A stretch of 64,000 bases of DNA from Verrucomicrobiota bacterium (GTDB lineage: Bacteria > Verrucomicrobiota > Kiritimatiellia > CAIQIC01 > JAGNIJ01), in the NCBI GenBank assembly GCA_036821485.1, contig DAISJM010000001.1:72320-136319 (forward strand). Reading direction: 5' to 3'. The translations under genes and the position numbers were made by a program. The notes under the pieces were generated by a model. That model saw nothing but the letters and a program-made list of their open reading frames with translations, was not told the origin of the DNA and did no database searches. Numbering within the stretch: position 1 is the first letter of the stretch; every line of letters starts with the position of its first letter. Of the stretch, positions 13,639 through 58,626 are shown one piece after another.

Positions 13639-13723
13639 GTGTGCTGCCTCGGAGTTGGAAAATCGAAATGTGAAAGTTGCCGGGAAGAGCCGGAGGTAAG
13701 TTTCCAGTTTCCAATTTCAAACG

Positions 13724-14614
13724 TCATATCAGCTCCTTCCCGTACTCGGGGCCGTCGCCCTCGAATCGTGAATCCGCCGCGCGGAGCGCGCGCTCCAACA
13801 TGACGCCGAGCATGTGCAACCGGTACTCCTTCGAAGAACGGATGTCGGTGATGGGCGACGCGATTTGTGGCACCATGGCAACCGCGGAGGCGACGAGCGC
13901 GTCCGTGATCGGCTTCCCCTCGAGCAGCTTCTCGATGGGCGTCGCGCGGATCGGGGTGGGGGCGACCGAACCGAAGGCGACGCGGTAGCTCTGCCCGTGG
14001 AACAGCATGACCGTGACGCTCGCCTGGGCGAGGTCCTCGCCGCTGTAGCGGCGCAATTTCACGAAGCAGCCCGCATGTTTTCTCCGGGGCTGCGGTATGG
14101 TGATGGCGACCGCGACCTCGCCCTTGTGGAGCGACGTCTTGCGCGGGCCGGTGAACCACTCCGCGATGGGAATCTTCCGCTTGCCCTTCGGGCCGGCCAC
14201 GTGAACCGTGGCATCGTAGACCAGCAGGATCGGGCCGCTATCGCAGCATGGGACGGCGGAGCAGATATTGCCGGCCATCGTCGCGCGATGCCGGATGCCG
14301 TTGGAAGCCACCCAGCCGATCATCTCGCGGATCAGCGGGAACTTCTTGCGGACCACGTTCGACTCGGCGATGTCGCTGAAGGTCGCAAGCGAGCCAATCC
14401 GGAGCGCGCCATCCTTGAGCGATACGCCGTCCAGCCCGCGGATGCCCTTGAGGTCGATCACCGCCTCGGGGCGGACGATGTCCTCCGTCATCAGGCTGAT
14501 GAGGTCGGTACCGCCCGCGAGCAGGCGACCGCGGTCGCCGTAGCGCGCCAGTGCCCGCGCGGCCTCGGCAACCGATGCGGGCTTCAGATAATCAAACGCA
14601 CGAGCAATGGTCAT
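13724..14614 (-). CDS. FAD-binding subunit (CoxM/XdhB-like) of the molybdenum hydroxylase
   Basis: Start trimmed to MTIARAFDYLKP (ATG at 14614) after a GGAAGGGAG RBS. LLAGGTDLISLM is the FAD-binding motif. Confidence 0.85.
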   Translation of the reverse strand: MTIARAFDYLKPASVAEAARALARYGDRGRLLAGGTDLISLMTEDIVRPEAVIDLKGIRGLDGVSLKDGALRIGSLATFSDIAESNVVRKKFPLIREMIGWVASNGIRHRATMAGNICSAVPCCDSGPILLVYDATVHVAGPKGKRKIPIAEWFTGPRKTSLHKGEVAVAITIPQPRRKHAGCFVKLRRYSGEDLAQASVTVMLFHGQSYRVAFGSVAPTPIRATPIEKLLEGKPITDALVASAVAMVPQIASPITDIRSSKEYRLHMLGVMLERALRAADSRFEGDGPEYGKELI

Positions 14615-14649
14615 GATGCTCCCTTCCGCGTTCCGCTCTCCTGATTCAA

Positions 14650-15468
14650 TTACTTGGGCGGCAGCATCGCGACGATGCGACACTGCGCCGATTCCAGTTC
14701 AATTCCGCGCATCGGGAAGCAGCCGATCCAGCAGCGCTGGTTGCTCAGCTTCCCGATCTCGCCGCCGATATTCTCCGCATGCACGAGTTTCTTGGGGAAC
14801 AACTTGAGATGCATGACCTGGTAGTAGTAATCCGGCGGGAACATCTCGTCCCAGCTCTTGCCGTACTTCGCCTTCAGCTTGGCCTCGGCCTCGAGGAACC
14901 GTGCCGGATGCCAGGTGCGGATAATCGTGTTCATGGGGTGATCCGCGCTGCCGCAGTCGACGCCGATCCACTTGATCTTCATCTTCAGCGCCCACTTGTC
15001 GAAGCCGGGGCCGGGGCCAGGATGTTTCACGAAGTAACGGACTTCGTCCGAACCGGGCTGATCCCATGCGTAGCGATTGTAGCCGGTGTTGATGATCAGG
15101 ATGTCGCCCTTCCGGATGTCCGCGCGTTTCATCAGCATTTCGGGCGAATAGAGGTCATAGTCGCCGACGTCTTTTGAAATATCGACGACGACGCCGGGGC
15201 CGATCCACTCCTTGATCGGCACGTTGCCGATCGACCGGCCACTGGCATGGAAATGGATTTCACCATCCATGTGCGTGCCCACGTGGTTGCTCATGGTGAT
15301 GATCTGCCCGTTCGCGCCTTGGCCCATGTGTGCGCCGGCGATGCGCTTGAAATACTGGATGCCCATCGGCATATAGCTCGGCCACGGCGGCGTGTGAATG
15401 CTTAGCCGCTGGGTCAGATCGAACACGCGCGCTTCAGCCATTAATTTGATGAAATCGTTAGTCTTCAT
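14650..15468 (-). CDS. Cyclase-family protein (kynurenine formamidase-like metal-dependent hydrolase)
   Basis: 272 aa. The HVGTHMDGEIHF motif is typical of the putative-cyclase family. Confidence 0.8.
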   Translation of the reverse strand: MKTNDFIKLMAEARVFDLTQRLSIHTPPWPSYMPMGIQYFKRIAGAHMGQGANGQIITMSNHVGTHMDGEIHFHASGRSIGNVPIKEWIGPGVVVDISKDVGDYDLYSPEMLMKRADIRKGDILIINTGYNRYAWDQPGSDEVRYFVKHPGPGPGFDKWALKMKIKWIGVDCGSADHPMNTIIRTWHPARFLEAEAKLKAKYGKSWDEMFPPDYYYQVMHLKLFPKKLVHAENIGGEIGKLSNQRCWIGCFPMRGIELESAQCRIVAMLPPK

Positions 15469-15510
15469 TTTCCCGCACCTCCGGTTTCGTGTTGTTCGTG
15501 TCTTTCGTGG

Positions 15511-16791
15511 TTACTTCTTTAATCCTTTTGCCAATCCTTCAAACGCCTTCCGGAACGGTTCCAGCGGGGCGTTCAGCACGCCCGCGCCGATCTGGCCGAC
15601 ACCCGCCTGCTTGTGCGCGACACCGGTGTCGATGAACGGAAGGATGTTCTTCTCGATGATCTTCACGACGTCGATGCCAGTCGGTGTGCCGCGGAAATTG
15701 AGCGCCGGCACCTGGTACGCGTTATTCTCCCCGGCGGTGATTTCGTACATCTGTGTCGTGTAGCGAATCGAGTCGGCGACCTGGCCGCCGACGAACTGGA
15801 CAATCGCAGGCGCGGCGGCGATGGCGAAGCCGCCGAGGCCGTTGGTTTCCGTGATCGCGCTGTCGCCGATGTCCGGATTCGCGTCGGCCTTCGTGTAGCC
15901 GGGGAAATACAGCGCATCCGGCACGTCGGCAGGCCCGGTGAACCACGCGTTGCCCGTGCCGGCGAGTTGTACGCCGAAGTCGGTGCCGTTGCGCGCCATG
16001 ACGACTGCCACGCTGCTATTGGGGATGTTGCGCGCGGCATCGAGTGTCGCCTTCGATGCGGGCATGGAGAGGTTCAGGAAGAAGTGGTCGTTATGGTTGA
16101 TGAACTCCAGCACGTCGGAAGCGGTCTTCGGATCCGGCGCAGTGGTGATGACGGCCGGTGCAATCGTGCGATAGAGGATGGACGTTCCCGCGCGATTGCG
16201 GTTGTGGACCTCGTCGCCCATATGCAGCGCCTGCGCAATGATGTTCTTCAAATCGATCACGCCGATTTTCGCGATGGCCTTTTTCAGCGTCGGATAGAGC
16301 ACGCGCTCCATCCATTTGAGTCTCGCCACAACATCGTCCCCGTAGGCGCCGTAGCGCAGCACTTTGCCCAGCCCCTCGTTCTGCGTGCAGTAGGCGAAGT
16401 TGCCGAACGTGGCATTCTTCAGGACGAACACGGGCATGGAAGGGGAGATGATGCCGGCCATAGGGCCGACTGATGCGTGCTCGTGGCAGGGCGCATATTT
16501 GATGGTGCCGGATGACGCGAGGGCCTCGGCCTCTGTCGGGTTCTTTGCGCGGCCTTCATAGATCAGTGCGCCCATGATCGCGCCGCGCATCGGGCCGCAC
16601 ATCCGTTCCCAAGTCACCGGCGGGCCGGCGTGCAGGATCAGGTCGCGTTTCATGCCGGGGATGATGTCGATCGCGCGCTCCATGCCCACGAGCTGCGGCA
16701 TGCCGCCCAAGATGATTTCGATCGCCTTGCGGTTGGCCTTCTCAATGGCCGGTCGCCGTGCCGCGATGATCCGCAGAAGCTTGTCATCCAT
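15511..16791 (-). CDS. DUF1116 protein (YlbE homolog; oxamate carbamoyltransferase subunit family)
   Basis: Start chosen at MDDKLLRIIAARRP, giving 426 aa, close to E. coli YlbE at ~419 aa. LHAGPPVTWERMCGPMRGAIMGAL..YAPCHEHASVGPMAG match the family. The alternative GTG at 16932 (GTGA overlap with fdrA) would add 47 aa. Confidence 0.7.
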   Translation of the reverse strand: MDDKLLRIIAARRPAIEKANRKAIEIILGGMPQLVGMERAIDIIPGMKRDLILHAGPPVTWERMCGPMRGAIMGALIYEGRAKNPTEAEALASSGTIKYAPCHEHASVGPMAGIISPSMPVFVLKNATFGNFAYCTQNEGLGKVLRYGAYGDDVVARLKWMERVLYPTLKKAIAKIGVIDLKNIIAQALHMGDEVHNRNRAGTSILYRTIAPAVITTAPDPKTASDVLEFINHNDHFFLNLSMPASKATLDAARNIPNSSVAVVMARNGTDFGVQLAGTGNAWFTGPADVPDALYFPGYTKADANPDIGDSAITETNGLGGFAIAAAPAIVQFVGGQVADSIRYTTQMYEITAGENNAYQVPALNFRGTPTGIDVVKIIEKNILPFIDTGVAHKQAGVGQIGAGVLNAPLEPFRKAFEGLAKGLKK

Positions 16792-16928
16792 GTCCACCGG
16801 TGGCTTCCAGTCCACCTGTACCGCCTGTGCGCCGGAGGATGCCAGCGCATCCTTGAACGACGACAAGCCGAAGTTGACCACCTTGAGGTCCGTTTCAAAA
16901 AGCTGGTTAATGCCGCTCTTCTTCTTGC

Positions 16929-18428
16929 TCACTTCCCACCTGCCTTTGCCGCGTTGCCGGCGTATGCACACGCTGCGGCGTTGCTCGGCATCACGATGGC
17001 TCCAGCAGCCTTCAGGGCTTTGACCACCCGTGAACGATTCTGCGGGTCGCCGTCGGTGCCGGTGACCGAACATACCACCGGAACTTTGCGCGAGGCCGTG
17101 CGGATCACCGGTGCAAGTTCCGCGGCCGGGTCCATGTTCGAGCCGTAACCGAGTACGACGTCCAGCAGGATCACGGCAGTCTCGGGATCAGCCGCCTCCG
17201 CCAGAATCCGTTTGTTGCGTAACGAGAAGTCGATCATCGGATGCGGTCGGCCGACGGTAAACTCGTCCTCGCCCAGATCGACGAACGAGTGCTTCTGGCT
17301 CTTCAACGAATCCTTGAGCCGCTTCGTCCTGCCGGTCGGCGCGTTGGAGTAGAGTTGGCCGAGCGTGTCCTCGAGAATGATTTGCGCTTCTGCGCAGAAC
17401 GTTCCGCCGCTGAACAAGCCCCGGACGTATTTGCGGCGGCCGCGGGCGCGCCGCGGCCGGCTCTGAGATCCGACCCTATCTTGAAGGTCTTCAATCTTGC
17501 GGCCTGTCGCGAGCGCAACTGCTTGCAGCGCAGCCTCTTCCAGCGTCTTTGGTCCGTCTCCTTCCGCGCCGAGAAGTAGCGAGACAACGGGCTTACGGAT
17601 GCGGCGCACTTCACGGCGGACGCGGTTCAGCACGCTGGGGTGGGGCGGTTTGGAGACGAGCAGGATGACCTTCGTCTGCGGGTCGGCGGCGAGCGCCTTC
17701 AGGCCGGCGAGGAACATGATGCCGCCGACTTCCTTCTTTACGTCGCGCCCGCCCGTGCCGATTGCCTGTGAAATACCGGAGCCTTCGTTGGAGATGATGG
17801 TGCTGACTTCCTGGAGTCCGGTTCCGGCGGCGGCGACGATGCCGATCGGGCCGCGGCGAACCACGTTGGCGAAGGCGAGCGGGATGCCGTTGATGATCGC
17901 CGTGCCGCAGTCGGGACCCATGACGAGCAATCCCTTCTTTGCCGCGAACTTCTTGAGTTCGATTTCCTTCTCGATCGGCACGTTGTCGGAAAAGAGCATG
18001 ACGTGCAGGCCCTTCTCAAGACAGCGCATCGCGAGCGAGCCGGCATAACGACCGGCGACGGAGATCAACGCGAGGTTCGCGCCCGGCAGAACCTTCACGG
18101 CGCCGTCGAGATCAGACGGGAGCGTTTCACCGGAGGAAGTCCCGACGGCCGCGGCCTTGCTCTTGAGCGCGGCCTCGGCTGCGTTCAAAGCGGCCTCGGC
18201 TGTCTTGGCATCGCGCGCCTTCACGGCCAGCAGCAGGTCGGTATCGGTTGCCTTGGCAAAATCGGAGATCAGCAGGCCGGACGCCTTGAGGATGCCGAGG
18301 TTCGACTTCGTGCCCATGACAAGCGCGGCTTCGGCGACGCCGTCCGTGCCGGCAATGCTTTTGCCTACGCGCATCAGCGAGACGGAATCGTGGTAGGCGC
18401 CCTTTTTGATTCTGCCGAGGGTAATCAT
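16929..18428 (-). CDS. fdrA: FdrA-family protein (acyl-CoA synthetase/succinyl-CoA-synthetase-alpha-like)
   Basis: 499 aa. MITLGRIKKGAYHDSVSLMRV is a typical FdrA N-terminus, followed by CoA-binding and ATP-grasp-like regions. Confidence 0.85.
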   Translation of the reverse strand: MITLGRIKKGAYHDSVSLMRVGKSIAGTDGVAEAALVMGTKSNLGILKASGLLISDFAKATDTDLLLAVKARDAKTAEAALNAAEAALKSKAAAVGTSSGETLPSDLDGAVKVLPGANLALISVAGRYAGSLAMRCLEKGLHVMLFSDNVPIEKEIELKKFAAKKGLLVMGPDCGTAIINGIPLAFANVVRRGPIGIVAAAGTGLQEVSTIISNEGSGISQAIGTGGRDVKKEVGGIMFLAGLKALAADPQTKVILLVSKPPHPSVLNRVRREVRRIRKPVVSLLLGAEGDGPKTLEEAALQAVALATGRKIEDLQDRVGSQSRPRRARGRRKYVRGLFSGGTFCAEAQIILEDTLGQLYSNAPTGRTKRLKDSLKSQKHSFVDLGEDEFTVGRPHPMIDFSLRNKRILAEAADPETAVILLDVVLGYGSNMDPAAELAPVIRTASRKVPVVCSVTGTDGDPQNRSRVVKALKAAGAIVMPSNAAACAYAGNAAKAGGK

Positions 18429-19420
18429 TTTCGAGCCTTTGTTTTGAGGTTCCCCGTGGGTTCACCCCACGGGGGCCAGAATTCTGCCTCCTGCCGGTCA
18501 AGCCGGCAGGGAGGCAGGAGCATGGAGGCTCCCCGTGGGTTGACCCCACGGGAGCCAGAATTCTGCCTCCTGCCGCGCAAGGTGGCAGGGAGGCTCTTCA
18601 ACATCAACACGAACCCTGCGGTGAGGTCGGCGCCCGACGTTTCGCCGAGGGCAAGTACGCGACGGCCGCAGGAACGAACTTCGCGCGCGCTGCCGTGAAG
18701 CAGCGCGCCGATCAGGTTCTTCATCGGTTCAGCGACGAATCCGTCGCGGGCGAGGCCGAGAAAATGGGCGGAGAGCCGATGCCGAGTCCTCGCTGCAGCG
18801 TGGATCGTGGCAATCGCGCGGGAGTAATCGGTGTTTGTCAGGTTTCCTGCGAGATGCAGGGCCATCATTGCGCCTGCGAGGAAATCGTCGCCGCCCGGTG
18901 TCAGGCCAAAGCCACAACCGGCGAGGAGACGGCTCCCGCGCGCGAGCCGGCGCGGGTTGTTTAATCCGTCGAGCATGTCCTTCGCGCCCGCACGAATGCG
19001 CCGCGCAAACTGGCGGGAGAGCAAATCGGGCCCGGGCGCAGCGTGGGGGTCGAGCAGGAGCAAAAAGTTCCAAGGGTTGGAAAACTGGGGTACCCATTTT
19101 TCCAAGGATTTGAAATTTCGTGCGAAGCGCCGGCCGGGTACCTCATCGCGCGCGAGGTCGGAGCGATAGACCGGAGTCCGGCGGATGACGTGGCGGCGAT
19201 CGGAGAGGGTGACTGAACCGCGGCGGATGATCAGGCGTGGCGCGGCGCCGCAGAAGTCGCGCGCGGAACCTGCGACGACAAGGTTGGCCGGGCCAGCGCC
19301 GATCTCGGCGCTGACGACGGACACAAGGCGGCCGCCGCGGACGAAATTCACGGCACGATCAAAGCGGGAGTGAACGCAATACGTTCCTTCCCGCACTCTG
19401 TCGCCGATACTCAGCAGCAT
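18425..19420 (-). CDS. DUF2877 protein (YlbF homolog) carrying in-frame repeat-derived sequence
   Basis: GFGLTPGGDDFLAGAMMAL is the DUF2877 motif. The ORF is 331 aa against ~270 typical. The last ~60 codons are read from a tandem palindromic repeat, and codons ~101-118 from a TTCCAA palindromic element. Confidence 0.6.
   Translation of the reverse strand: MLLSIGDRVREGTYCVHSRFDRAVNFVRGGRLVSVVSAEIGAGPANLVVAGSARDFCGAAPRLIIRRGSVTLSDRRHVIRRTPVYRSDLARDEVPGRRFARNFKSLEKWVPQFSNPWNFLLLLDPHAAPGPDLLSRQFARRIRAGAKDMLDGLNNPRRLARGSRLLAGCGFGLTPGGDDFLAGAMMALHLAGNLTNTDYSRAIATIHAAARTRHRLSAHFLGLARDGFVAEPMKNLIGALLHGSAREVRSCGRRVLALGETSGADLTAGFVLMLKSLPATLRGRRQNSGSRGVNPRGASMLLPPCRLDRQEAEFWPPWGEPTGNLKTKARK
18449..18597. 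repeat. Two tandem ~78-bp units, each built of three palindromes
   Basis: The units are >90% identical: CCCCGTGGG-TTSAC-CCCACGGG, CAGAATTCTG and CCTCCTGCCGG-N-CCGGCAGGGAGG. They lie at the 3' end of the DUF2877 ORF, just upstream of the fdrA start. Confidence 0.8.
19064..19117. repeat. Palindromic element copy C (TTCCAAGGGTTGGAA-N12-TTCCAAGGATTTGAA), in-frame inside the DUF2877 gene
   Basis: Same family as 5598-5649 and 47278-47328, with the second half degenerate. It is 54 bp (18 codons) and translates as KSLEKWVPQFSNPWNFLL. Confidence 0.7.
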
Positions 19421-19455: not shown

Positions 19456-19803
19456 CTATTTCACCTCGGAGAAAATCATACCGAGGTGTTTCCGAAGATC
19501 GCTTTGTCTCACCACCGAGACGCTGCCCGTCACGGCCATGCCGGTGCGGGGTTTATCGATGTTGAGTTGGCCCAGGATGCGGAGACCGTTCTCCAACTCG
19601 ACAATGCCGAGCAGGAGCGTGGGCACGTTGAAATCGCCGGGCAGCGTGTGCAGCCGGGTGAAGGTCAGCAGCTTGCCTTTTCTCGGCAGGGGCACGGGTT
19701 CGAATTCATTGTGCTCGTTGGCATGGCACTTCTTGCAGACCATGCGGTAGGGGTAGTGGAGCTGGCCGCATTTCCGACATTTATAGGCATAGATTTCGGC
19801 CAT
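19456..19803 (-). CDS. DUF35 Zn-ribbon/OB-fold protein (thiolase/HMG-CoA-synthase partner)
   Basis: 115 aa. MAEIYAYKCRKCGQLHYPYRMVCKKCH is a C-x2-C...C-x2-C ribbon. RBS GGGAGGA. It starts 2 nt after the thiolase stop. Confidence 0.8.
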   Translation of the reverse strand: MAEIYAYKCRKCGQLHYPYRMVCKKCHANEHNEFEPVPLPRKGKLLTFTRLHTLPGDFNVPTLLLGIVELENGLRILGQLNIDKPRTGMAVTGSVSVVRQSDLRKHLGMIFSEVK

Positions 19804-19805
19804 GG

Positions 19806-20981
19806 CTAATCCTCCCGGATAAAGGTCAGGCAGACGACGTTGTTGCCGAATCCGCCGAAGTTGCAGGTGAAGCCTACCTTCGCATCCTTGACCTGGCGTT
19901 TGCGCGCTTCGCCGCGCAGTTGGGTGACGATTTCGTGCGCCTGCCCGATCCCGGTTGCGCCGACGGGGTGTCCCTTGGCCTTGAGGCCGCCGGACGTGTT
20001 GATCGGGATCTTGCCGCCGATGCGGGTCTCGCCCTTTTCGAGCGCGATGTGACCCTGCCCTTTCTTGAAGAAGCCGACTTCCTCGCTCTCGACGATCTCG
20101 AGGATGGTGAACGCATCGTGCAGTTCGGCCACGCTGACATCGGATGGTTTCACACCGGCCATCTTGAACGACTGCTCGGCGGCGCGGCGCACGGCCAGCA
20201 GGTCCGTCGGGTTCTCGCGCTCGTGTACCGCATGCGTGTCGGTCGCCTGGCCGACGCCGGCGAGGCGGACGAGCGGGCGGCCGGTCTTCTTTGCGACTTC
20301 CTTCGTGGCGAGAATGACGCATGCGCCGCCGTCGGAAACGGGGCATAGATCGAAGAATCGTAGCGGCTCGGCGACGTACGGGTTGTTCGTCAGCGCCTCG
20401 GGTCCGTCGAGGATGCCCTCGATCGTGATCTTCTGGTGCAGGTGGGCGAACGGGTTGAGCATCGCGTTGTCGTGGTTCTTCACCGCGACCATGGCGAGGT
20501 GGCGCGAGGTGACGCCGTACTGCTCCATGTAGAGCCGGGTGAACATGCCCGCGAGGGAGGGCAGGGTCACGCCGTAGATGTATTCCGCGATCTGGTGCGT
20601 GAGCGTGGCGACGAAGTCCGTCGCCTCGAGGTTGTTGGTTTCGCGCATGCGTTCCGCGCCGGTGACCATGACAACGTCGTGGAGGCCGGAGGCGACCGCC
20701 ATGAAGCCCTGCTTGATGGCGGAAGCGCCGGAAGCGGGTCCGTTTTCAATCGTTTCCGCGCCGGCGGGTGTGAGGCTGAGGGTATCGATCACGGCGCTGG
20801 CGAGCGCGGTCTGACCGTTCACGCGGCCGCTGCCCATGTTGGCCACGTAGAGGTGATCGATCTTCGACAGCCCGGCGTCCTTGAGGGCGATCATCGCCGG
20901 ATAGGCGGCGATTTCGGAGATGGGGTAATCGAGCCGGGAGAAGCTCGTGATGCCGATGCCGACGACATAGACCTCGCGCAT
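19806..20981 (-). CDS. Thiolase-like protein (archaeal-type acetyl-CoA acetyltransferase / SCP-x-like)
   Basis: Start at MREVYVVGIGITSF (ATG at 20981, RBS GGGAAGG). The condensing-enzyme fold is recognisable and the C-terminus reads NFGGFGNNVVCLTF. Confidence 0.85.
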   Translation of the reverse strand: MREVYVVGIGITSFSRLDYPISEIAAYPAMIALKDAGLSKIDHLYVANMGSGRVNGQTALASAVIDTLSLTPAGAETIENGPASGASAIKQGFMAVASGLHDVVMVTGAERMRETNNLEATDFVATLTHQIAEYIYGVTLPSLAGMFTRLYMEQYGVTSRHLAMVAVKNHDNAMLNPFAHLHQKITIEGILDGPEALTNNPYVAEPLRFFDLCPVSDGGACVILATKEVAKKTGRPLVRLAGVGQATDTHAVHERENPTDLLAVRRAAEQSFKMAGVKPSDVSVAELHDAFTILEIVESEEVGFFKKGQGHIALEKGETRIGGKIPINTSGGLKAKGHPVGATGIGQAHEIVTQLRGEARKRQVKDAKVGFTCNFGGFGNNVVCLTFIRED

Positions 20982-20982
20982 G

Positions 20983-21756
20983 TTACGCCTTCCCTTCGGG
21001 GCCGTCGGCTTCGCCATGCTCGAGCCTCCAGCGCTGCTGGAGGATCGCGGTGCCGGTGGGGTCCTTCATGGCCCGCGTGGCTGCCATGAGATCCGCGGGC
21101 GGTTTGGGCGGGTTGGATGGCGGAAGAATCTTGTCCTGCGCCTTCTTCAGTTCATCCGGCGGGACGGGGCGGCGGCCGACGACGAGCGTGCTGCGCGCCT
21201 TGTTGAATAATTCCTTGGTCAGCGCCCACGAGGGGACGCCGCCGAGTTCGTGGGCGATGTCGAACCGCTTCTCGAGCTGGTACTCGATCATCCACCGGCG
21301 GAAGCCGATGGGCGATTCGGCGACGATGAGGACCTCCTTCTGGCCGACGATGTCGAGGTGGTACTCCATCTTGGCCGCGAAGGCGTGAGCGCCGACGCGG
21401 AGGCCGCGCCGGAGGGCGAGGGTGTGGTAGGACACGCCGACGTCCTTGCTGGCAAAGCGGCCGTTGACGATCGCGGCGAGCTCGCCGTTGATCTGGGCGA
21501 TCAGCACGTACTCGTCCTGAACGCGATGGCGGTAGTAGCCGAGCAGTTCGGCGTACACGCGTACGGAAACGATGTCGTAGAAATCGCGCTCGACGTGGAT
21601 CAGCGGTTCCACGTGCGGAAGGAGGTCGGGAATTTCTTCGCGCCCCACCTGGCGGACGACCATGTTCTCGCCGCTGGCGAGCTGCATGAACTTGGGTGGA
21701 AACGGCGGCGCGGGGTGATCGATCGGCCGGAGGATTTTCTCGAGTTCTACCGCCAT
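20983..21756 (-). CDS. Hypothetical protein, first gene of the minus-strand catabolic operon
   Basis: 257 aa starting at MAVELEKIL (RBS AAGGGGG). No recognisable motif; an acyltransferase-like alpha/beta pattern is possible. Confidence 0.45.
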   Translation of the reverse strand: MAVELEKILRPIDHPAPPFPPKFMQLASGENMVVRQVGREEIPDLLPHVEPLIHVERDFYDIVSVRVYAELLGYYRHRVQDEYVLIAQINGELAAIVNGRFASKDVGVSYHTLALRRGLRVGAHAFAAKMEYHLDIVGQKEVLIVAESPIGFRRWMIEYQLEKRFDIAHELGGVPSWALTKELFNKARSTLVVGRRPVPPDELKKAQDKILPPSNPPKPPADLMAATRAMKDPTGTAILQQRWRLEHGEADGPEGKA

Positions 21757-21962
21757 AAGACCCCCTTTCAAGGTGCCTCAAGTTATGTACGGCTCGGTGC
21801 CTGAAATGTTAATACGGGCAGGGGGGAAAGGCGAGTGCCGAAACAGTGATCGGTGACCCGTGAGTAGTTGGCGGTTTTTGAGTGACAATGGGCCGGGATC
21901 GGGAACAATAGTCCGGCACGCAGTGCCAAGGTTTCCGTGTTGTAAGCGAAAGGAATCCAACG

Positions 21963-22934
21963 ATGGCCAGGTCCCGAACCGCATCAGGGCTGAAGTCCCG
22001 CGTGAAACGCGTGACGGTTGCCGGCGTACAGGTCTCCCCGCGCCCGAACGATATTCCCCACAACGTGGAGATGGTGATCTCGTGGTTTCGGCGCGCGGTG
22101 CGCGAGACGGATGCGCGACTGGTCGTGTTCCCGGAGAGCATCACCACCGGGTTTCATCCCGGCATGCCGCTGGAGCAATTTCACGATCTGCTGCCGCGCC
22201 GCGTCGAATCGATGCTGGCGCCGATCCAGCAGGTGTGCCGCGAGAAGAAGTCTTATTGCGTGGTACCGACCTATGAGCGCGGGCGCGGGCATCGCACGAT
22301 CTACAACAGCGCGTTCCTGATCGACGGGCGAGGCGATATCGCCGGCGTCTACCGCAAGACGCATCCGTTTCCGACGGAGCGGTTGAGCGCGGGCGGCTGG
22401 ACGACGCCGGGCATGGAGTATCCCGTGATTCCGACCGAGTTCGGCGCCGTCGGCATGATGATCTGCTACGACGGCGATTTCCCGGAAGTGTCACGTATCC
22501 TCGCGATCAAGGGTGCGCAAATCATCGCGCGGCCGTCCGCGCTGCTGCGCGGGTTCGACGTGTGGGAGATGACGAACAACGTGCGTGCCTATGACAACCA
22601 CGTCTACCTCGTGGCGGTCAACGCGGTCGGCACCGATGCGTCCGGCACGCACTACTTCGGCCACAGCATGATCGTCTCGCCGACGGCGCAGGCGCTGGCC
22701 GTGGCGCGCGGCACGGAGGAGATCATCTACGCGGAACTGAATCCCAATCCGCTCAAACGGCTGGGGTTGGGTTCCGATGCGCCGATGCTGTTCGACCATC
22801 TTGAGGACCGCAATGTCGCGTCGTACGGTTCGGTGTTGTCGCGGTCGGTCCGCAGCCCGTTCGAGCCGGCGAAGAGGTTCAGTATTCACAAGCACACGCC
22901 GCAACGCGGGAAGAAGTCCGGGAGGTCCTCATGA
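21963..22934 (+). CDS. Carbon-nitrogen hydrolase (nitrilase-superfamily amidase / N-carbamoyl-amidohydrolase-like)
   Basis: 323 aa. The E-K-C catalytic triad context is present: LVVFPES, YRKTHPF and MMICYDGDFPE. RBS GAAAGGAA. Confidence 0.85.
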   Translation: MARSRTASGLKSRVKRVTVAGVQVSPRPNDIPHNVEMVISWFRRAVRETDARLVVFPESITTGFHPGMPLEQFHDLLPRRVESMLAPIQQVCREKKSYCVVPTYERGRGHRTIYNSAFLIDGRGDIAGVYRKTHPFPTERLSAGGWTTPGMEYPVIPTEFGAVGMMICYDGDFPEVSRILAIKGAQIIARPSALLRGFDVWEMTNNVRAYDNHVYLVAVNAVGTDASGTHYFGHSMIVSPTAQALAVARGTEEIIYAELNPNPLKRLGLGSDAPMLFDHLEDRNVASYGSVLSRSVRSPFEPAKRFSIHKHTPQRGKKSGRSS

Positions 22935-24559
22935 AGTTCGACCGCAACAGGAAGGACTACGAGGAGCGCATCCGCCGGGGCCGCGCGTTCGCCGACGGCA
23001 AGCTGGTGCCGAAGGAGCGCGTGGTGGACCTGCTCAACGCCGTGCTGAAGCGGGGCGACCGGGTGTGCATCGAGGGCGACAATCAGAAGCAGGCCGATTT
23101 CCTCGCAAAGCGGCTGCTCGAGGTGGATCGCAAAAAGATTCGCGACCTGCACATGGTGCAGTCGACGCTCGTGTTGCCGGAGCACGTCGAGCTGTTCCGG
23201 CAGGGCATTGCGTCGCGGCTGGATTTTGCCTACTCGGGCCCGCAAGCGAAGAACCTCTATCAATTGGTGGCCGAGAAGAAGGTCCGCATCGGGGCGATTC
23301 ACACGTACCTGGAGCTCTACGGCCGTTACTTCGTGGACCTTTGTCCGCAGGTGGCGATGCTCGTTGCCGAGGCTTGCGACGACGAGGGCAACATCTACAC
23401 CGGGTTCAATACGGAAGATACGGCGCTGATCAGCGAGGCAGCCCACTTCAAGTCCGGCGTGGTCATCATCCAAGTGAAGGAGAAGGTGCGCAAGCTGCCG
23501 CGCGTGGACATTCCCGCGGGCTGGGTGGACTTCATCGTCGTCACCGGCGAGGAGTATCACCTGCAGGCGCTTTTCACGCGCGACCCGGGGAAGATCACTG
23601 CATCGCAAGTGCTCATGGCGATGATGGTGATGAAGGGTATCTACAAGGAATACCAGGTGCGGTCGCTGAATCACGGGCTTGGCTACGCCACGGCGGCGAT
23701 TGAGCTGCTGCTGCCCACCTACGGGCGCGAGCTGGGCCTGAAGGGCAAGTGCTGTACGCACTGGGTGCTCAATCCGCATCCGACGCTGATCCCCGCGATC
23801 GAGCGCGGCTTCGTGGAGCACATCTATTCCTTCGGCGGCGAGCCGGGCATGGAGGCGTACACGCAGGCGCGGGGCGACGTGTTCTCGATCGGCTCCGACG
23901 GTAACCTGCGCTCGAATCGGTGCTACGCGCACATTGCGGGGTTGTACGCCATCGACTTGTTCATCGGCGCGACGCTGCAGATGGACGGGGATGGAAATAG
24001 TTCCACAGCCATCAAGGGTATGATCGCCGGATTCGGCGGGGCGCCCAATCTCGGCGGCACCCCGCCGGGGCGGCGGAATTTCACCGAGGCGCTGGTGCGG
24101 GCGGGTCGCTGGGACGGGAAGGTGTTCCAGGGTCGCAAACTCGTCGTGCAGATGACGCCGACGGTGAGCGAGAAGAAGCAGATCCCGGTGTTCGTCGAAG
24201 AGCTCGACGCGATGACGCTTTACCGGGACAAAGTTTTTGCGAAACCGCCGGTGATGATCGCGGGCGACCAGGTGACGCACGTGGTGACGGAGCGTGGCAT
24301 CGCGTATCTCGACCGCTGCAAGGATTTGGCGACGCGGCGGCTGGCGATCGCCGCCGTGGCGGGCGACACACCGGTTGGCCGTACGATCAAGAAATCACAG
24401 GTGGGTCCGCTGCGACGCGCGGGCATTGTGAAGACGGCGGAAGACTTGGGGATCGATGTTCAGAAGGCGACGCCGGACCGGTTGGCGGCGCACAGCCTGG
24501 CCGATCTCGTGCGGATTTCGAAGGGCCTGTATTCTGTGCCGCCCGGCGTCACGGGGTGA
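22931..24559 (+). CDS. Malonate decarboxylase alpha-subunit (MdcA)-like acyl-transferase (citrate-lyase-alpha/CoA-transferase fold); orphan, with no mdcBCDE nearby
   Basis: 542 aa. It matches MdcA along its length from memory: GDRVCIEGDNQKQADFL, DLHMVQST, IGAIHTYLELYGRYF, LPRVDIPAGWVDF, TAAIELLLPTYG, GSDGNLRSNR, AGFGGAPNLGG and GRKLVVQM. ATGA overlap with the upstream hydrolase. Confidence 0.6.
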   Translation: MKFDRNRKDYEERIRRGRAFADGKLVPKERVVDLLNAVLKRGDRVCIEGDNQKQADFLAKRLLEVDRKKIRDLHMVQSTLVLPEHVELFRQGIASRLDFAYSGPQAKNLYQLVAEKKVRIGAIHTYLELYGRYFVDLCPQVAMLVAEACDDEGNIYTGFNTEDTALISEAAHFKSGVVIIQVKEKVRKLPRVDIPAGWVDFIVVTGEEYHLQALFTRDPGKITASQVLMAMMVMKGIYKEYQVRSLNHGLGYATAAIELLLPTYGRELGLKGKCCTHWVLNPHPTLIPAIERGFVEHIYSFGGEPGMEAYTQARGDVFSIGSDGNLRSNRCYAHIAGLYAIDLFIGATLQMDGDGNSSTAIKGMIAGFGGAPNLGGTPPGRRNFTEALVRAGRWDGKVFQGRKLVVQMTPTVSEKKQIPVFVEELDAMTLYRDKVFAKPPVMIAGDQVTHVVTERGIAYLDRCKDLATRRLAIAAVAGDTPVGRTIKKSQVGPLRRAGIVKTAEDLGIDVQKATPDRLAAHSLADLVRISKGLYSVPPGVTG

Positions 24560-25808: not shown

Positions 25809-26001
25809 CGCGAGGTCCTCCTAGTAACGTAACCCGAGTTAACATACCGACATGGGTCGGGCGTGTTCAGCCATCGCGGAGTCTTTCGACCTATATTTTT
25901 CCGTGCCGGCGCGGTATTGGTGAGCTGTTGGTTCCGTGTTCTTTATGGCGCGGATTACAATTACGAGTACGAGTGCGAACAAGAGCACGAGGAGAGACCC
26001 C

Positions 26002-28365
26002 ATGAGTGTTGCCTTCGGACCCCGCCGCGCTGTAATGATCAACATCGCCGACGAACTCAAGAATGGCCCTGCTCCTGTTTCAGAGGCGGATCTCAAATCA
26101 TTCGAATTCCTCGACTTGGTGTATCGCTGCATGGTGGCGGTGCTCTACAACTACGTCCCGGGCTCCGGTCATCCCGGTGGATCGATTTCCTCCGGCCGTT
26201 TCGTCGAAGGCATTCTCTATGACGCAATGGATTACGATTTCTCGGACCCGGATGCAGCGGGCGCGGACATGATTTCCTACGCCGCGGGCCACAAGGCCTT
26301 GGGGTTGTACGCGATGTGGGCGTTGCGCAACGAGGTGATGCGGATCGCGCGGCCCGACCTGTTGCCCAAGCGCGCCGAGCTTCAGTTCCGGCTCGAGGAC
26401 CTGCTTGGCTTCCGGCGCAACCCGACGAACGACACGCCGCTGTTCAAGCAGTTCAAGGCCCGCGCGCTGGACGGACATCCGACGCCCGCGACGCCGTTCA
26501 TTCGTCTTTCCACCGGCGCATCCGGCGTGGGCGTGGCCGCTTCCTTCGGCCTTGCACTGGGCGCAAGGGACATCTATCGCGCGGATTCGCCGCGCGTGCA
26601 CATTGTCGAAGGCGAGGGCGGGATGACGCCTGGCCGCGTGGCCGAGGCCTTTGCCGCCGCCAGCTCGACGCGCCTTGGCAACATCATCATGCACATCGAC
26701 TGGAACCAGGCGTCGATCGACAGCAACCGGGTATGCCGCGACGGCAATCAGCCCGGCGACTACGTCCAGTGGGATCCGGCCGAATTCGCCTACCTGCATG
26801 ACTGGAATGCGATTCTCGTGCCGGACGGCAAAGATTTCCGCCAGGTGTTTGCGGCGCAGCACCGCGCGCGGGCGCTGGACAACGGGCAGCCGACGGCGAT
26901 TGTCTATCGCACGGTCAAGGGTTGGCAGTATGGCATCGAAGGCCGTGCGTCGCACGGCGCAGGCCACAAGCTCTGCTCGGCGGGCTACATGTCCGCTGTG
27001 ATGCCGCTTACCGTTGAGGCACAGACGCGCCTGCCGCAGTGCCAGAGCGATATGCGCTGTGGCGGCACCGACCGCAATATTATCGAGCAGTGTTACTGGG
27101 ACGCGCTGTTGGTGGTGCGCGAGTCGTTGACGAAGCACCGCGATCGTATCGCGCCGTTGGCCGAACGGATTGCAGCATCACGCGAGCGCCTGCAGAAGCG
27201 CGGCCGGAAGCCGCACGCCGGCGCGCCGAAGATTTCTGCGATCTACGACCGGAAGCAGGTGGACCCGAAACAGGTGCCTGCGGGCTTGGTACTGAAATCC
27301 GGTTCCTCGACGACGCTGCGCGCGGCGCTTGGCGATGTGCTGGGCCATCTCAACAAGCTCAGTGGCGGGGCCATCCTGACTGCGTCTGCCGACCTGCTGG
27401 GTTCCACATCGGCGTCGAACGCTGCCAAGGGATTCCCGGAAGGCTTCTTGCAGTACGATGCGAACCCGGACGCGCGATTAGTCGCGACAGGGGGCATCTG
27501 CGAGGACGCCATGGCCGGCATTCTGTCGGGTCTTTCCACCTATGGTTTCCATGTCGGCGCAGGTTCGTCGTACGGCGCATTCGTTGCGCCGCTCGGGCAC
27601 ATTGCCGCGCGGTTGCACGGCATTGGCAACCAGGCGCGGCAGGCTCTGGTCCCGGACGATCCGTTCAAGCCGTTCATTCTGATCTGCGCACATGCCGGAT
27701 TGAAAACGGGCGAGGATGGCCCGACGCATGCCGATCCGCAGCCGCTGCAACTGCTGCAGGAGAATTTCCCGAAGGGCGTGATGATCACGCTTACGCCGTG
27801 GGACCCGCAGGAGATGTGGCCGCTGGTGATCACGGCGCTGCAGAAGCGGCCGGCCGTGATCGCGCCCTTTGTCACGCGGCCGAATGAGAACGTGCTGGAT
27901 CGTGCGGCGCTGAAACTGTGCCCGGCGGGCGACACTGTCACCGGCCTGTACGCTTTGCGGAAAGCGGATCCGGCCCGCCGCCGTGACGGCACGATCGTGC
28001 TGCAGGAGAGCGCGGTGGCCTATGCCTTTGTCGAGGAAGCGTTGCCGCTGATCGACAAGGCGGGCCTCAACCTGAATGTATTCTACGTTTCGTCGGCGGA
28101 GTTGTTTGATCTCCTGCCCGACGCCGAGCGCGAGAAGATATTCCCCGAGGAACTTGCGCAGGAAGCGATGGGCATCACCGGGTTCACATTGCCGACGATG
28201 CACCGCTGGGTGCGGTCGGCGCGCGGATTGGCGCACACGCTGCATCCGTTCATGCGGGGTCACTTCCTGGGCAGCGGTGCGGGAGCGGCCGTGCTGGCCG
28301 AGGCGCATCTCGACGGTGCAAGCCAGTTCAAGGCGATCGAGAAGTACATCAAAGCGCGCGGATAG
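26002..28365 (+). CDS. Transketolase-family TPP-dependent enzyme (atypically long, ~788 aa)
   Basis: ATG at 26002 after a GAGGAGAG RBS. VPGSGHPGGSISSG is the TK TPP motif. The Pyr and C-terminal domains are present but interrupted by inserts. Confidence 0.65.
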   Translation: MSVAFGPRRAVMINIADELKNGPAPVSEADLKSFEFLDLVYRCMVAVLYNYVPGSGHPGGSISSGRFVEGILYDAMDYDFSDPDAAGADMISYAAGHKALGLYAMWALRNEVMRIARPDLLPKRAELQFRLEDLLGFRRNPTNDTPLFKQFKARALDGHPTPATPFIRLSTGASGVGVAASFGLALGARDIYRADSPRVHIVEGEGGMTPGRVAEAFAAASSTRLGNIIMHIDWNQASIDSNRVCRDGNQPGDYVQWDPAEFAYLHDWNAILVPDGKDFRQVFAAQHRARALDNGQPTAIVYRTVKGWQYGIEGRASHGAGHKLCSAGYMSAVMPLTVEAQTRLPQCQSDMRCGGTDRNIIEQCYWDALLVVRESLTKHRDRIAPLAERIAASRERLQKRGRKPHAGAPKISAIYDRKQVDPKQVPAGLVLKSGSSTTLRAALGDVLGHLNKLSGGAILTASADLLGSTSASNAAKGFPEGFLQYDANPDARLVATGGICEDAMAGILSGLSTYGFHVGAGSSYGAFVAPLGHIAARLHGIGNQARQALVPDDPFKPFILICAHAGLKTGEDGPTHADPQPLQLLQENFPKGVMITLTPWDPQEMWPLVITALQKRPAVIAPFVTRPNENVLDRAALKLCPAGDTVTGLYALRKADPARRRDGTIVLQESAVAYAFVEEALPLIDKAGLNLNVFYVSSAELFDLLPDAEREKIFPEELAQEAMGITGFTLPTMHRWVRSARGLAHTLHPFMRGHFLGSGAGAAVLAEAHLDGASQFKAIEKYIKARG

Positions 28366-28771: not shown

Positions 28772-29404
28772 TCACAGGTCAGGCTCGTCCCATCCGTGCC
28801 CCATTTCAAGAACTGGGTATTTCTTCCATGTGCGCTCAGCATAGTCCCTTCCGACCCGATCCAGATATGGGGCTGCACTGGAAAACGGCCAATCGGTCCA
28901 GCGAGCGGCATACCCGTGGCGGACGGCATTGTGGTGAATGTAGTTGAGGGTGGCCCAGCGGTGATCGACAGACCGGACAGGCTTCAGCAGGCAGGCATGC
29001 CAGCATTTGCGACCCGCTGCGTTGTCCTCGACGTTCCATGTGTGAGAAGTGCGCCCATGAAGTTGTCCAAGGGCTTTGCGCAGCCGGGTCACATCAATGC
29101 ATTGGACCAGTGCATGGTAGTGGTTGGGCAGAATACACCATGCCATGGTGACGAGGGTTTCCGCTCTCAGAAACGCATCCAAATCGTTGGAGAAGGATGA
29201 GAGTCGTTGTGGGGTTGATCCGAGCAGCATGGCGTGCTCGTAGCAGGATGCGGCCAGATGAAACCAATTTGTCTCCAGTCCGTGCGGCGGTCGGTGCCAA
29301 GGCTGCTTTGATATCTGGCGCAGCCTGAGAACATCGGCTCGCTGGGCGGGTGTCATCTTGCGCCAGTTGTACATGTGTTTATCCCCGGGTCTAAGGGGGC
29401 GCAT
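28772..29404 (-). CDS. REP-associated tyrosine transposase (RAYT, IS200/IS605-like HUH Y1 transposase)
   Basis: The HUH motif is ILPNHYHALV, and the Tyr motif NYIHHNAVRHGYA matches the RAYT Y(I/V)HxNPVKHG signature. The ORF is flanked by REP copies at 28667-28721 and 29443-29496. The start may be an internal Met (M11 or M17). Confidence 0.7.
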   Translation of the reverse strand: MRPLRPGDKHMYNWRKMTPAQRADVLRLRQISKQPWHRPPHGLETNWFHLAASCYEHAMLLGSTPQRLSSFSNDLDAFLRAETLVTMAWCILPNHYHALVQCIDVTRLRKALGQLHGRTSHTWNVEDNAAGRKCWHACLLKPVRSVDHRWATLNYIHHNAVRHGYAARWTDWPFSSAAPYLDRVGRDYAERTWKKYPVLEMGHGWDEPDL

Positions 29405-30920: not shown

Positions 30921-32132
30921 ATGAAGAAGAAACAGCCCCCCCGACCGAGCATTTCCAGCCTGATCTCAGACATTCGCAAACTCAAGGCCGACCTGTGCGG
31001 GAAAGACTTTCTGCTGACGTGGGACAAGTCCGTCCCCGAATTGAAGCTCGTGGTGCAGGTGGCGGAGGCTTTGAAACAACTGCACGCGAAGAACATTTCC
31101 GCCAAGGTCTTTGAGACGGGGCTGGCCGTTTCGAACTTCCGCGACAATTCGACCCGGACACGCTTCTCCTTTGCATCCGCCTGCAATCTGCTCGGCCTTG
31201 CGGTGCAGGATCTTGACGAAGGCAAATCGCAGATCGCCCATGGCGAAACCGTTCGCGAGACGGCGAACATGATCTCGTTCCTCACCGAGGTGATTGGTAT
31301 TCGTGACGACATGTTCCTTGGCGCGGGTCACACCTACATGCTGGAGGTCGGCGAGGCGTTGGATGATGGATTCAAGCGCGGCGTGTTGAACCAGCGTCCG
31401 GCCATTGTGAATCTGCAGTGCGACATCGATCATCCGACGCAGAGCATGGCGGACTTGATGTGGCTGCGCGAATACTTCGGCGGGATCGAGAATCTGAAGG
31501 GCAAGAAGATTGCCATGACGTGGGCCTACTCGCCGAGCTACGGCAAGCCGCTCTCCGTGCCGCAGGGCATCATCGGTTTGATGACGCGATTTGGCATGCA
31601 TGTCTCGCTCGCGCATCCGGAGGGATACGACCTGATTCCGGATGTGATCGAGGTGGCGAAGAAGAACGCGAAGGCGGCGGGCGGCAGTTTCACGCAGGGG
31701 ACATCGATGGAGGCCGCGTTCAAGGATGCGGACATCGTGTATCCCAAGTCGTGGGCGCCCTACAAGGTCATGGGGACGCGGACAGAACTCCTGCGCGCGA
31801 ATGATCGCGACGGTCTGAAGGAGTTGGAGAAGAAGTGCCTTGCGCAGAACGCCAACTTCAAGAACTGGGAGTGCACGGAACAGAAGATGAAGCTGACGAA
31901 GGGCGGCAAGGCGCTCTACATGCACTGCCTGCCTGCGGACATTTCCGGTGTCTCCTGCAAGGAAGGCGAAGTGGCCGATTCCGTGTTCGAACGGTACCGC
32001 ATCGAGACGTACAAGGAAGCCGGCTACAAACCGTTTGTCATTGCGGCGATGATTCTGACGAGTCGATTCAAGGATCCTGCAGCCATCATTTCCGGCCTTG
32101 CCAGGCAAGGCAACAAGCGGATTGCCGGGTGA
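30921..32132 (+). CDS. ygeW: Knotted carbamoyltransferase YgeW
   Basis: 403 aa, near-collinear with E. coli YgeW from memory: FRDNSTRTRFSFASA, DEGKSQIAHGETVRETANMISF, CDIDHPTQSMADLMWL and ALYMHCLPADISGVSCKEGEV. Confidence 0.9.
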   Translation: MKKKQPPRPSISSLISDIRKLKADLCGKDFLLTWDKSVPELKLVVQVAEALKQLHAKNISAKVFETGLAVSNFRDNSTRTRFSFASACNLLGLAVQDLDEGKSQIAHGETVRETANMISFLTEVIGIRDDMFLGAGHTYMLEVGEALDDGFKRGVLNQRPAIVNLQCDIDHPTQSMADLMWLREYFGGIENLKGKKIAMTWAYSPSYGKPLSVPQGIIGLMTRFGMHVSLAHPEGYDLIPDVIEVAKKNAKAAGGSFTQGTSMEAAFKDADIVYPKSWAPYKVMGTRTELLRANDRDGLKELEKKCLAQNANFKNWECTEQKMKLTKGGKALYMHCLPADISGVSCKEGEVADSVFERYRIETYKEAGYKPFVIAAMILTSRFKDPAAIISGLARQGNKRIAG

Positions 32133-32242
32133 ATGTCCAATGACCAATGCCCGAATGACCAGTGAAGGCGCAGCAGACGGGAGTCTTCTATTATTGGGCC
32201 TTGGTGCTTGGTCAATGGTCATTGCTCAGGAGGGTCCATTGC

Positions 32243-33190: not shown

Positions 33191-33200
33191 AATGGGGGCT

Positions 33201-40409: not shown

Positions 40410-40472
40410 CGTGTGGGGAGCCTCTATCCCTGCAGCCACCGCCCCGGTACGTTATTCCTCCGGGGAGGAAGG

Positions 40473-58524: not shown

Positions 58525-58626
58525 CCAGCTAAAACGATTTAGATATACTATACAGATACCTGCCGCAAGCCCTTTTGTTAAGAAAGAATACCGCAGGGGC
58601 ACGCCGTGGCTCCACGAGGGCGGGAT

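Follow-up and report, generated by a model that had tools for sequence, protein, structure and literature searches.

The 64,000-nucleotide stretch of DNA analysed here (the window; G+C content ~62%) comes from a metagenome-assembled genome (MAG) of Kiritimatiellia and contains two overlapping forward-strand genes, one encoding a 323-amino-acid (aa) C-N hydrolase of the nitrilase superfamily (21963–22934, +; GenBank HPF98502.1) and one encoding a 542-aa relative of MdcA, the alpha subunit of malonate decarboxylase (22931–24559, +; HPF98503.1). From its sequence, the MdcA-like protein is best described as a member of a distinct branch of the MdcA family that would operate independently of an acyl carrier protein (ACP) with MdcA-like chemistry, and we propose that it transfers CoA from acetyl-CoA to malonate. 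The hydrolase is a nitrilase-superfamily member whose catalytic tetrad is intact, and it is proposed to be a malonate-releasing amidase. The pair may form a coupled two-step module that converts an amide to malonate and malonate to malonyl-CoA, probably finishing a pyrimidine-type oxidation route encoded by the neighbouring genes, a reading to which we give a little less than an even chance.

The junction of the two genes (22920–22934, +) has the features of translational coupling. The ATG of the transferase gene (22931–22933) shares bases with the TGA of the hydrolase gene (22932–22934), confirming the ATGA overlap (22931–22934) reported in the preliminary description of this DNA, and a GGGAGG Shine-Dalgarno sequence located inside the hydrolase gene (22920–22925) ends five bases 5' of the transferase start codon. 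The pair is bordered by a divergent gene on its upstream side and a convergent aminotransferase gene on its downstream side. The divergent intergenic region (21772–21962), which separates the pair from an operon described below, contains one sigma-70-like site (21882–21909, +), whose score in the promoter scan lies within shuffle expectation. Promoter and terminator scans of the pair gave no signal beyond chance, and an Rfam scan of the pair and its intergenic region returned no element and no riboswitch.

The match of the transferase to the malonate decarboxylase alpha subunit extends over its full length, as first described: residues 3–537 align with positions 2–540 of the 546 positions of PF16957 (Mal_decarbox_Al; 774 bits), and the alignment with Pseudomonas aeruginosa MdcA (5vit_A) is end to end (595 bits). 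Identity to annotated mdcA genes is 53–56%, and the public annotation of HPF98503.1 is 'malonate decarboxylase subunit alpha', but the score against the NCBIfam mdcA equivalog TIGR01110 (736.2 bits) falls under the cutoff of 789.15. Clustering with ordinary CoA-transferases, raised previously as an alternative, was not found in a PDB search, in which the matches following MdcA reached only E ~1e-4. The absence of nearby mdcB/C/D/E/G/H genes was also upheld, and over a wider range, as tblastn searches with MdcB/C/D/E/G, MadB/L/M and the biotin carrier of the Rhodobacter capsulatus biotin-type operon and with MdcB/C/D/E/G/H of the biotin-independent operon of Achromobacter pEST4011 gave zero matches across the whole 64 kb window. 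No normal mdc operon with its own MdcA was found in the window either.

Comparison with related loci supports the orphan status of the gene. A set of MdcA-like loci was compiled, made up of 80 loci recovered by scanning GTDB at one genome per species and 4 from contig look-ups (individual loci are numbered with the prefix L where they need to be told apart). Almost all homologues at ≤59% identity have mdcC-mdcD-mdcE directly downstream, usually with mdcG and mdcB, whereas none of those at ≥61% identity has mdc partner genes within 10 kb. In a neighbour-joining (NJ) tree that compares the protein with bona fide MdcA, as had been suggested, 16 orphan loci form a clade separate from 66 operon-type MdcAs with a bootstrap of 200/200, and mean identity is 0.69 inside the orphan clade versus 0.57 across the split. 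None of the 16 orphan-clade loci has mdcB/C/D/E/G/H within 10 kb (tblastn). The hosts of this clade are MAGs of the Planctomycetes–Verrucomicrobia–Chlamydiae (PVC) group, Spirochaetota and Chlamydiota, with L016, L017 and L045 as basal branches, and the clade is very abundant in databases (>8000 matches, the top 120 at ≥68% identity). The preliminary description had called a stand-alone MdcA coupled to an amidase an undescribed arrangement, and our literature search likewise found no description of a stand-alone MdcA. Whether aconitase, which lies next to the orphan gene in L001/2, L004 and L011, might work together with it was also considered, and the idea was rejected because these aconitases are 83–92% identical and stem from a single lineage, so that their adjacency is not independent evidence.

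The pattern of residue conservation separates the malonate pocket from the docking surface (positions in P. aeruginosa MdcA numbering, following the holoenzyme structure paper, PMC5534430). Eight of the nine malonate-binding and catalytic residues are identical in the window transferase, and Arg341, Asn292, Phe312, Asn59, Tyr134, Gly381, Asn258 and Arg228 are invariant in 16/16 orphans. The exception is Gln345, which is His in the window protein, in 15/16 orphans and also in the operon-type protein of L078. The residues contacting MdcC, in contrast, are lost. Position 424, at which the F424A mutation disrupts the tetramer (PMC5534430), carries an aromatic residue in 64/66 operon proteins and V, R or K in the orphan clade. 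Glu466, found in 64/66 operon proteins, is not conserved among orphans, and the Y/F that 63/66 operon proteins have at position 490 is replaced there by D/E/N. On the MdcC/MdcE docking surface (F424, E466, position 490, R500 and R521), the residues of the window transferase are V, R, D, S and V, respectively; positions 500 and 521 are uninformative, since they vary among operon proteins too. Changes specific to the orphan clade are N58D, R375M, E422P, a 1-aa insertion after 428, D458Q and R485A. Measured as an MdcA subunit, the protein has the homology and the pocket and lacks the other three of five properties: it scores under the equivalog cutoff, has no partner genes nearby and does not keep the docking residues.

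Loss of the docking residues is not confined to this clade. Positions 424 and 490 were lost independently in three stand-alone MdcAs that branch within the operon-type clade (L023, L039 and L040). In Bradyrhizobium erythrophlei (L039, 9944–12932) the stand-alone MdcA is followed by malonyl-CoA decarboxylase (PF05292), a pair that looks like a two-enzyme, ACP-free route of malonate decarboxylation, while in L023 and L040 the gene accompanies MatC or MadLM malonate carriers and in L038 a TRAP (DctM) transporter. The retained malonate pocket, the lost MdcC-docking residues and the precedent of MdcA with malonyl-CoA decarboxylase in L039 together argue for ACP-independent use of free CoA, and we infer that the window transferase is an acetyl-CoA:malonate CoA-transferase (EC 2.8.3.3) acting on free CoA thioesters.

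The partner hydrolase matches PF00795 (CN_hydrolase) over residues 18–262 (E 1.9e-48). Among 122 orthologues, at least 97% retain its tetrad E58/K132/E139/C168 and also a C-terminal tail, extending to about residue 292, that is the family's own. In the PDB, it is closest to PH0642, Pyrococcus nitrilase-like proteins, yeast Nit3 and formamidases, all of them distant (95–107 bits); of the omega-amidases, yeast Nit3 (1f89) is matched at 95 bits and mouse Nit2 (2w1v), likewise among the top matches, at 70 bits. The label 'carbamoylase/amidase-type' given to this protein earlier proved too specific, with the best NCBIfam scores at 88–108 bits versus cutoffs of 400–500. N-carbamoyl amidase models were not reached (AguB, 88 bits versus a cutoff of 410), and beta-ureidopropionase structures were matched only at E ~1e-11. 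Members of this hydrolase family occur widely among PVC bacteria with no MdcA-like gene beside them.

The order of hydrolase followed by MdcA-like gene is found in five lineages (the window, L003, L005/6, L008 and L009). Relative to the window, hydrolases of L003, L008 and L009 are 74–77% and their MdcA-like proteins 74–78% identical, with values of 57% and 68%, respectively, in L005/6, and a stop/start overlap of 1–4 nucleotides is present in 4/5 lineages (the window, L003, L008 and L009). The flanks differ per lineage, for example tyrosyl-tRNA synthetase (TyrRS) and alanine racemase in L003 and ATP synthase in L005/6, and database matches indicate further hydrolase/MdcA-like pairs. That order and overlaps are maintained while the flanks are rearranged argues for a functional two-gene module, and conserved order together with translational coupling suggests consecutive steps, the amidase product (malonate) being the substrate of the transferase. 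In one Kiritimatiellae lineage the two genes have come apart: the DNA of L088 is 88.6% identical to the far end of L001/L002, which places hydrolase and MdcA-like gene ~10 kb apart there. They are separated by tandem Toxin-deaminase (PF14424) genes (L001/L002 17782–19094; L088 3962–5348), inserted beside the GNAT-thiolase-DUF35 trio, a set of genes described next.

Upstream of the pair, a divergent string of ten genes encodes a GNAT-fold protein, thiolase, DUF35 protein, AllH, AllF, AllG, a cyclase-family hydrolase and the FAD, 2Fe-2S and molybdenum-cofactor (Moco) subunits of a xanthine dehydrogenase (XDH)-family enzyme, all on the reverse strand. The first gene (20983–21771) encodes a 'hypothetical' protein of ~249 aa for which sequence searches of Pfam, NCBIfam and the PDB found nothing; its AlphaFold2 (AF2) model (predicted local distance difference test score, pLDDT, 74.6) returned GNAT matches in Foldseek. 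This family has >3000 homologues, annotated 'hypothetical' everywhere, the top 120 of which are 74–96% identical across Verrucomicrobia, Kiritimatiellae, Lentisphaerota and Eisenbacteria. Here, as generally in this family, the gene is followed by those of an archaeal-type thiolase (19806–21017; PF22691/PF00108; NF004720, 408 bits) and of its DUF35 partner (19456–19836; ChsH2-type OB/zinc-ribbon, homologues of 126 aa). Malonyl-CoA decarboxylase also has a GNAT fold, and the modelled fold suggests that the protein could be a decarboxylase or N-acyltransferase acting on a CoA ester made next door. Further along lie AllH-like (18425–19420; PF11392; 30% identity to Escherichia coli YlbF/AllH), AllF/FdrA-like (16929–18428; NF004760, 487 bits versus a cutoff of 433; 42% identity to E. 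coli AllF) and AllG-like (15511–17073; PF06545, 324 bits; 43% identity to E. coli AllG over residues 109–518) genes, the true start of the last being probably ~100 codons inside the open reading frame (ORF). They are followed by the cyclase-family metal hydrolase (14650–15468; PF04199), a proposed ring-opening amidohydrolase, and by the three-subunit molybdenum hydroxylase of the XDH family (10727–14683; FAD 13724–14683, 2Fe-2S 13165–13638, Moco 10727–13168).

On the forward strand, the window also encodes bona fide members of the YgeY hydrolase family (5664–6857) and of the YgeW knotted carbamoyltransferase and carbamate kinase families (30921–33190), which are typical of purine catabolism clusters in anaerobes and mark the region as a nucleobase-catabolic island. 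The carbamate kinase (32162–33190; TIGR00746, 386 bits versus a cutoff of 358; 36% identity to E. coli AllK) is a possible consumer of carbamoyl phosphate. The PALP enzyme that adjoins these genes (33150–34478) is threonine-synthase-like and not a YgeX-type diaminopropionate ammonia-lyase.

A metagenome scan with the cyclase as query recovered 80 loci at 73–85% identity, 40 of which span at least 12 kb and were used for the counts. XDH subunits were present in 37/40, AllF and AllG in 34/40, AllH in 29/40, the GNAT-fold gene in 15/40, thiolase and DUF35 in 8/40, an amidase-signature gene in 6/40 and malonyl-CoA decarboxylase in 1/40. The arrangement AllH-AllF-AllG-cyclase-XDH(FAD/FeS/Moco) is widespread, with conserved gene order (window 10727–19420, −; L092–L170), and the literature search found no description of such an XDH-cyclase-AllFGH cluster. 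An amidase-signature gene is co-directional with and downstream of the XDH Moco subunit in L121, L124, L125, L131, L148, L166, L168 and L169, and the enzyme is also present in L045 (11746–13074). Its best full-length PDB relative is malonamidase E2 (MAE2; 140 bits). Arg158 and the catalytic triad of MAE2 are conserved in it, but these were rejected as proof of malonamidase activity, as they form a general amidase signature that is also present in GatA. No such enzyme is encoded in the window itself, which leaves the C-N hydrolase as the sole amidase in the vicinity of its XDH cluster.

A link of these genes to malonate emerges from other loci. Seven loci, from at least four phyla, have AllFGH/cyclase genes next to an MdcA-family gene, a complete malonate decarboxylase or malonyl-CoA decarboxylase, accompanied by nucleobase transporters, regulators and pyrimidine enzymes. 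In L017 (Chlamydiota), AllF, AllG and the MdcA-like gene form a tight array behind a Bmp/PnrA nucleoside-type ABC transporter. L016 combines the MdcA-like gene with nucleoside phosphorylase, cyclase, AllH, a second C-N hydrolase, a PreA-type dihydropyrimidine dehydrogenase and a dihydropyrimidinase-like protein, and L045 (Spirochaetota) combines it with thiolase, GNAT-fold protein, the amidase-signature enzyme and cyclase. Two Bacillota loci (L055 and L062) contain a PucR regulator, AllH-AllF-AllG-cyclase and a complete biotin-type (Mad) malonate decarboxylase, and L119 contains AllF-AllG-cyclase-AllH, a Xan_ur (xanthine/uracil-family) permease and malonyl-CoA decarboxylase.

These associations allow a possible route to be drawn. 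In the classical oxidative pyrimidine pathway, barbiturate is converted to ureidomalonate and this to malonate and urea (PMC3758960), while E. coli AllFGH converts oxalurate and phosphate to carbamoyl phosphate and oxamate (PMC11326118); ureidomalonate is an N-acylurea one carbon longer than oxalurate. In the proposed route, a barbiturate-type trioxo ring would arise from uracil or thymine through the XDH-family hydroxylase and be opened to ureidomalonate by the cyclase-family hydrolase, and the AllFGH homologue, in parallel to the oxalurate reaction, would split ureidomalonate with phosphate into carbamoyl phosphate and malonamate, the former yielding ATP through carbamate kinase. The nitrilase-superfamily hydrolase, with its Glu-Lys-Glu-Cys site, would then release malonate from a small malonyl amide, most likely malonamate and less likely ureidomalonate, and the MdcA-like protein would move CoA from acetyl-CoA onto malonate, so that malonyl-CoA and acetate are formed. 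In other clusters the amidase slot would be held by the MAE2-like amidase-signature enzyme, and in other loci malonate would be decarboxylated by Mad complexes or malonyl-CoA decarboxylase. The earlier suggestion of an amidase combined with a malonate-activating transferase is thus retained in its logic, which fits the conserved malonate pocket, and altered in its chemistry: AllFGH homologues point to malonamate in place of ureidomalonate and carbamoyl phosphate in place of urea. Oxalate or oxamate as the cluster product, as the known AllFGH substrate oxalurate might imply, was rejected as the main reading; it fits less well because the recurrent neighbours (Mad complexes, malonyl-CoA decarboxylase and MdcA-family genes) are malonate-specific. 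Throughout this route we infer the substrates, whereas gene structure, clade split, residue patterns, pairing and genomic associations are observed. In its fullest form, with the pair as the end of an ATP-yielding oxidative pyrimidine pathway of anaerobes in which GNAT-fold protein, thiolase and DUF35 protein process CoA esters, the proposal is a tentative one that we consider somewhat unlikely. Literature searches on an anaerobic route from barbiturate or uracil to malonate, on malonamate, on malonate decarboxylase with pyrimidines and on Kiritimatiellota with malonate found no relevant description.

Several observations weigh against assigning the pair to this route. The hydrolase reached none of the NCBIfam equivalogs, being well below the cutoffs for formamidase (108 bits), archaeal nitrilase (105 bits) and N-carbamoylputrescine amidase (88 bits), and its AF2 model is of too low a confidence for reading the pocket (mean pLDDT 61, <50 in the C-terminal half). 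The XDH-family enzyme scored under the cutoff of all substrate-specific equivalogs (best XdhA, 532 versus 780). Neither the C-N hydrolase of the pair nor an MdcA-like gene was found within 10 kb in any (0/40) of the XDH-cyclase-AllFGH clusters of at least 12 kb, which indicates that the XDH cluster is a conserved unit of its own with the pair outside it, and the pair lies far from any such cluster in 4/5 of its lineages. In L088, L089 and L090, hydrolase orthologues of ~60% identity have no MdcA-like gene beside them, so that context does not fix the hydrolase substrate, and many orphan MdcA-like genes have no hydrolase neighbour, as in the aconitase-adjacent L001, L004 and L011. A monophyletic subclade of hydrolase-partnered MdcA-like proteins, seen in the first NJ tree, had a bootstrap of only 56/200 and was dropped. 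The connection of the pair with the XDH-family enzyme and pyrimidine degradation, put forward speculatively at the outset, has partial and indirect support, which comes from the AllFGH/cyclase-malonate associations in other phyla and not from the XDH clusters themselves, of which 0/40 have the pair; elsewhere the pair occupies unrelated neighbourhoods. Much of this would also suit a housekeeping module for salvage or damage control whose proximity to the XDH island is incidental, with the hydrolase acting on another amide or nitrile (as an omega-amidase or in Nit-like repair) and the transferase recycling malonate to malonyl-CoA for fatty-acid synthesis, stray malonate being an inhibitor of succinate dehydrogenase and fumarate reductase. 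The absence of the pair from XDH clusters, the frequency of the hydrolase family in PVC bacteria without MdcA-like neighbours and the great abundance of the orphan clade all favour such a role, as does the location of the pair or orphan gene elsewhere beside TyrRS and alanine racemase, ATP synthase, aconitase or RlmN-like genes. It leaves unexplained, however, why AllFGH/cyclase genes accompany MdcA-family or malonyl-CoA decarboxylase genes in seven loci, including those of the basal branches L016, L017 and L045, and why the hydrolase is divergent from a GNAT-thiolase-DUF35 trio that is itself joined to XDH clusters in 8–15/40 loci, and we regard it as a serious rival, though a rather unlikely one.

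The remaining alternatives concern single steps or the pairing itself. If the hydrolase were a ureidomalonase, converting N-malonylurea to malonate and urea as in the Rhodococcus-type route before activation by the MdcA-like protein, the established conversion of barbiturate through ureidomalonate to malonate and urea (PMC3758960) would provide a model, genes for an XDH-family enzyme and a ring hydrolase lie alongside, and a nitrilase-type Cys enzyme could take the malonyl acyl group with urea leaving. This is nevertheless improbable, since the known AllFGH reaction strips the carbamoyl group of an N-acylurea as carbamoyl phosphate and would make a ureidomalonase redundant beside the AllFGH homologues (FdrA above cutoff, 42–43% identity); the window has a carbamate kinase and no urease was seen in it, and clusters with an extra amidase hold AllFGH too, which argues for sequential and not alternative steps. 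That the transferase is a genuine MdcA subunit, served by ACP, decarboxylase and prosthetic-group genes elsewhere in the genome, would agree with its full-length 53–56% identity to real MdcAs, its intact active site and its public annotation, but we consider this very improbable given that mdcC-D-E lie directly downstream in the 66 operon-type homologues and are absent from all 16 orphan-clade loci, that F424 and other MdcC-contact positions are replaced clade-wide and that the TIGR01110 score is under the equivalog cutoff. Equally, there is scarcely any likelihood that two unrelated genes were packed together by chance: both are found apart in related genomes, but their order and 1–4-nucleotide overlaps are kept across five lineages (57–78% protein identity) with fully rearranged flanks, and in the L001/L088 lineage both genes are still within ~10 kb of each other.

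Should the ACP-independent reading of the transferase be correct, thousands of PVC entries named 'malonate decarboxylase subunit alpha' would be misannotated and would belong to a distinct ACP-independent clade of malonate CoA-transferases. These proteins would represent a natural single-subunit, ATP-free enzyme for converting malonate to malonyl-CoA, useful for polyketide and fatty-acid engineering. If the proposed route holds, the oxidative pyrimidine pathway, which is known only from a small number of aerobes and considered rare, may turn out to have a phosphorolytic counterpart among anaerobes that conserves energy, and the newly discovered AllFGH type of transcarbamylase would gain a second substrate.

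Other features of the window include a protein of 654 aa (1162–3126, +) with a match to eukaryotic Dpy19, a C-mannosyltransferase (PF10034, 51 bits), which is unusual for a bacterium. Downstream of the pair, an 809-aa transketolase-like thiamine-diphosphate protein (25936–28365, +) is unusually long and scores well under every transketolase cutoff (135 versus 488 bits). A gene resembling REP-associated tyrosine transposases (28772–29404, −; 60 versus a cutoff of 80 bits) lies between the transketolase-like gene and a serine dehydratase gene and may mark a rearrangement point in the island. At 36036–44426 (+), two giant subtilases of secreted type (1457 and 1337 aa) are encoded in tandem; both contain lamin-tail domains, to which one adds a bacterial Ig domain and a proprotein-convertase P domain. 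A very long ORF of 1737 aa is located at 53389–58602 (−), and tRNA genes are found at 44481–44553 and 53236–53308.

The closest known system is malonate decarboxylase, whose alpha subunit MdcA/MadA (P. aeruginosa, 5VIT) is an acetyl-S-ACP:malonate ACP transferase (PMC5534430). The window transferase shares with it the fold, the family (PF16957 over the full length, 53–57% identity), the malonate-binding and oxyanion residues except for Gln345 (His) and, presumably, direct acyl exchange through an anhydride; it differs in having no MdcC/D/E/B/G/H partners, in the replacement of docking residues 424, 466 and 490 and in its placement in a separate clade. Stand-alone MdcAs such as that of L039 are similar in having no holoenzyme, in standing where an enzyme of malonate activation would be expected and in the lost docking residues, but they fall inside the operon-type clade and are partnered by a decarboxylase or transporter and not by an amidase. 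The rhizobial MatA/MatB/MatC malonate system offers a further comparison for stand-alone MdcA accompanied by malonyl-CoA decarboxylase or carriers. Omega-amidases (Nit2/Nit3) and PH0642-type amidases share the C-N hydrolase fold and the Glu-Lys-Glu-Cys tetrad with the window hydrolase, and omega-amidases hydrolyse dicarboxylate monoamides, the chemistry proposed here; these proteins are nonetheless distant from the window hydrolase, which has a C-terminal tail of its own and reaches no equivalog. Malonamidase E2 of Bradyrhizobium japonicum converts malonamate to malonate and ammonia, the reaction proposed for the window hydrolase, and in L045 and 8 related XDH clusters an MAE2-like enzyme stands where the amidase would act, but MAE2 belongs to the amidase-signature family and has an unrelated fold, so that the window hydrolase would be a non-orthologous replacement. 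With the E. coli AllFGH/AllK system (PMC11326118), the window has in common AllF, AllG and AllH homologues (42, 43 and 30% identity, respectively) and a carbamate kinase. With the classical pathway of uracil dehydrogenase, barbiturase and ureidomalonase (PMC3758960) it shares an XDH-family hydroxylase and a proposed ring-opening hydrolase, although no barbiturase (AtzD family) was detected in the window, where a cyclase-family hydrolase is present instead, and the carbamoyl release proposed here would be phosphorolytic rather than hydrolytic, with the end product passing to malonyl-CoA.

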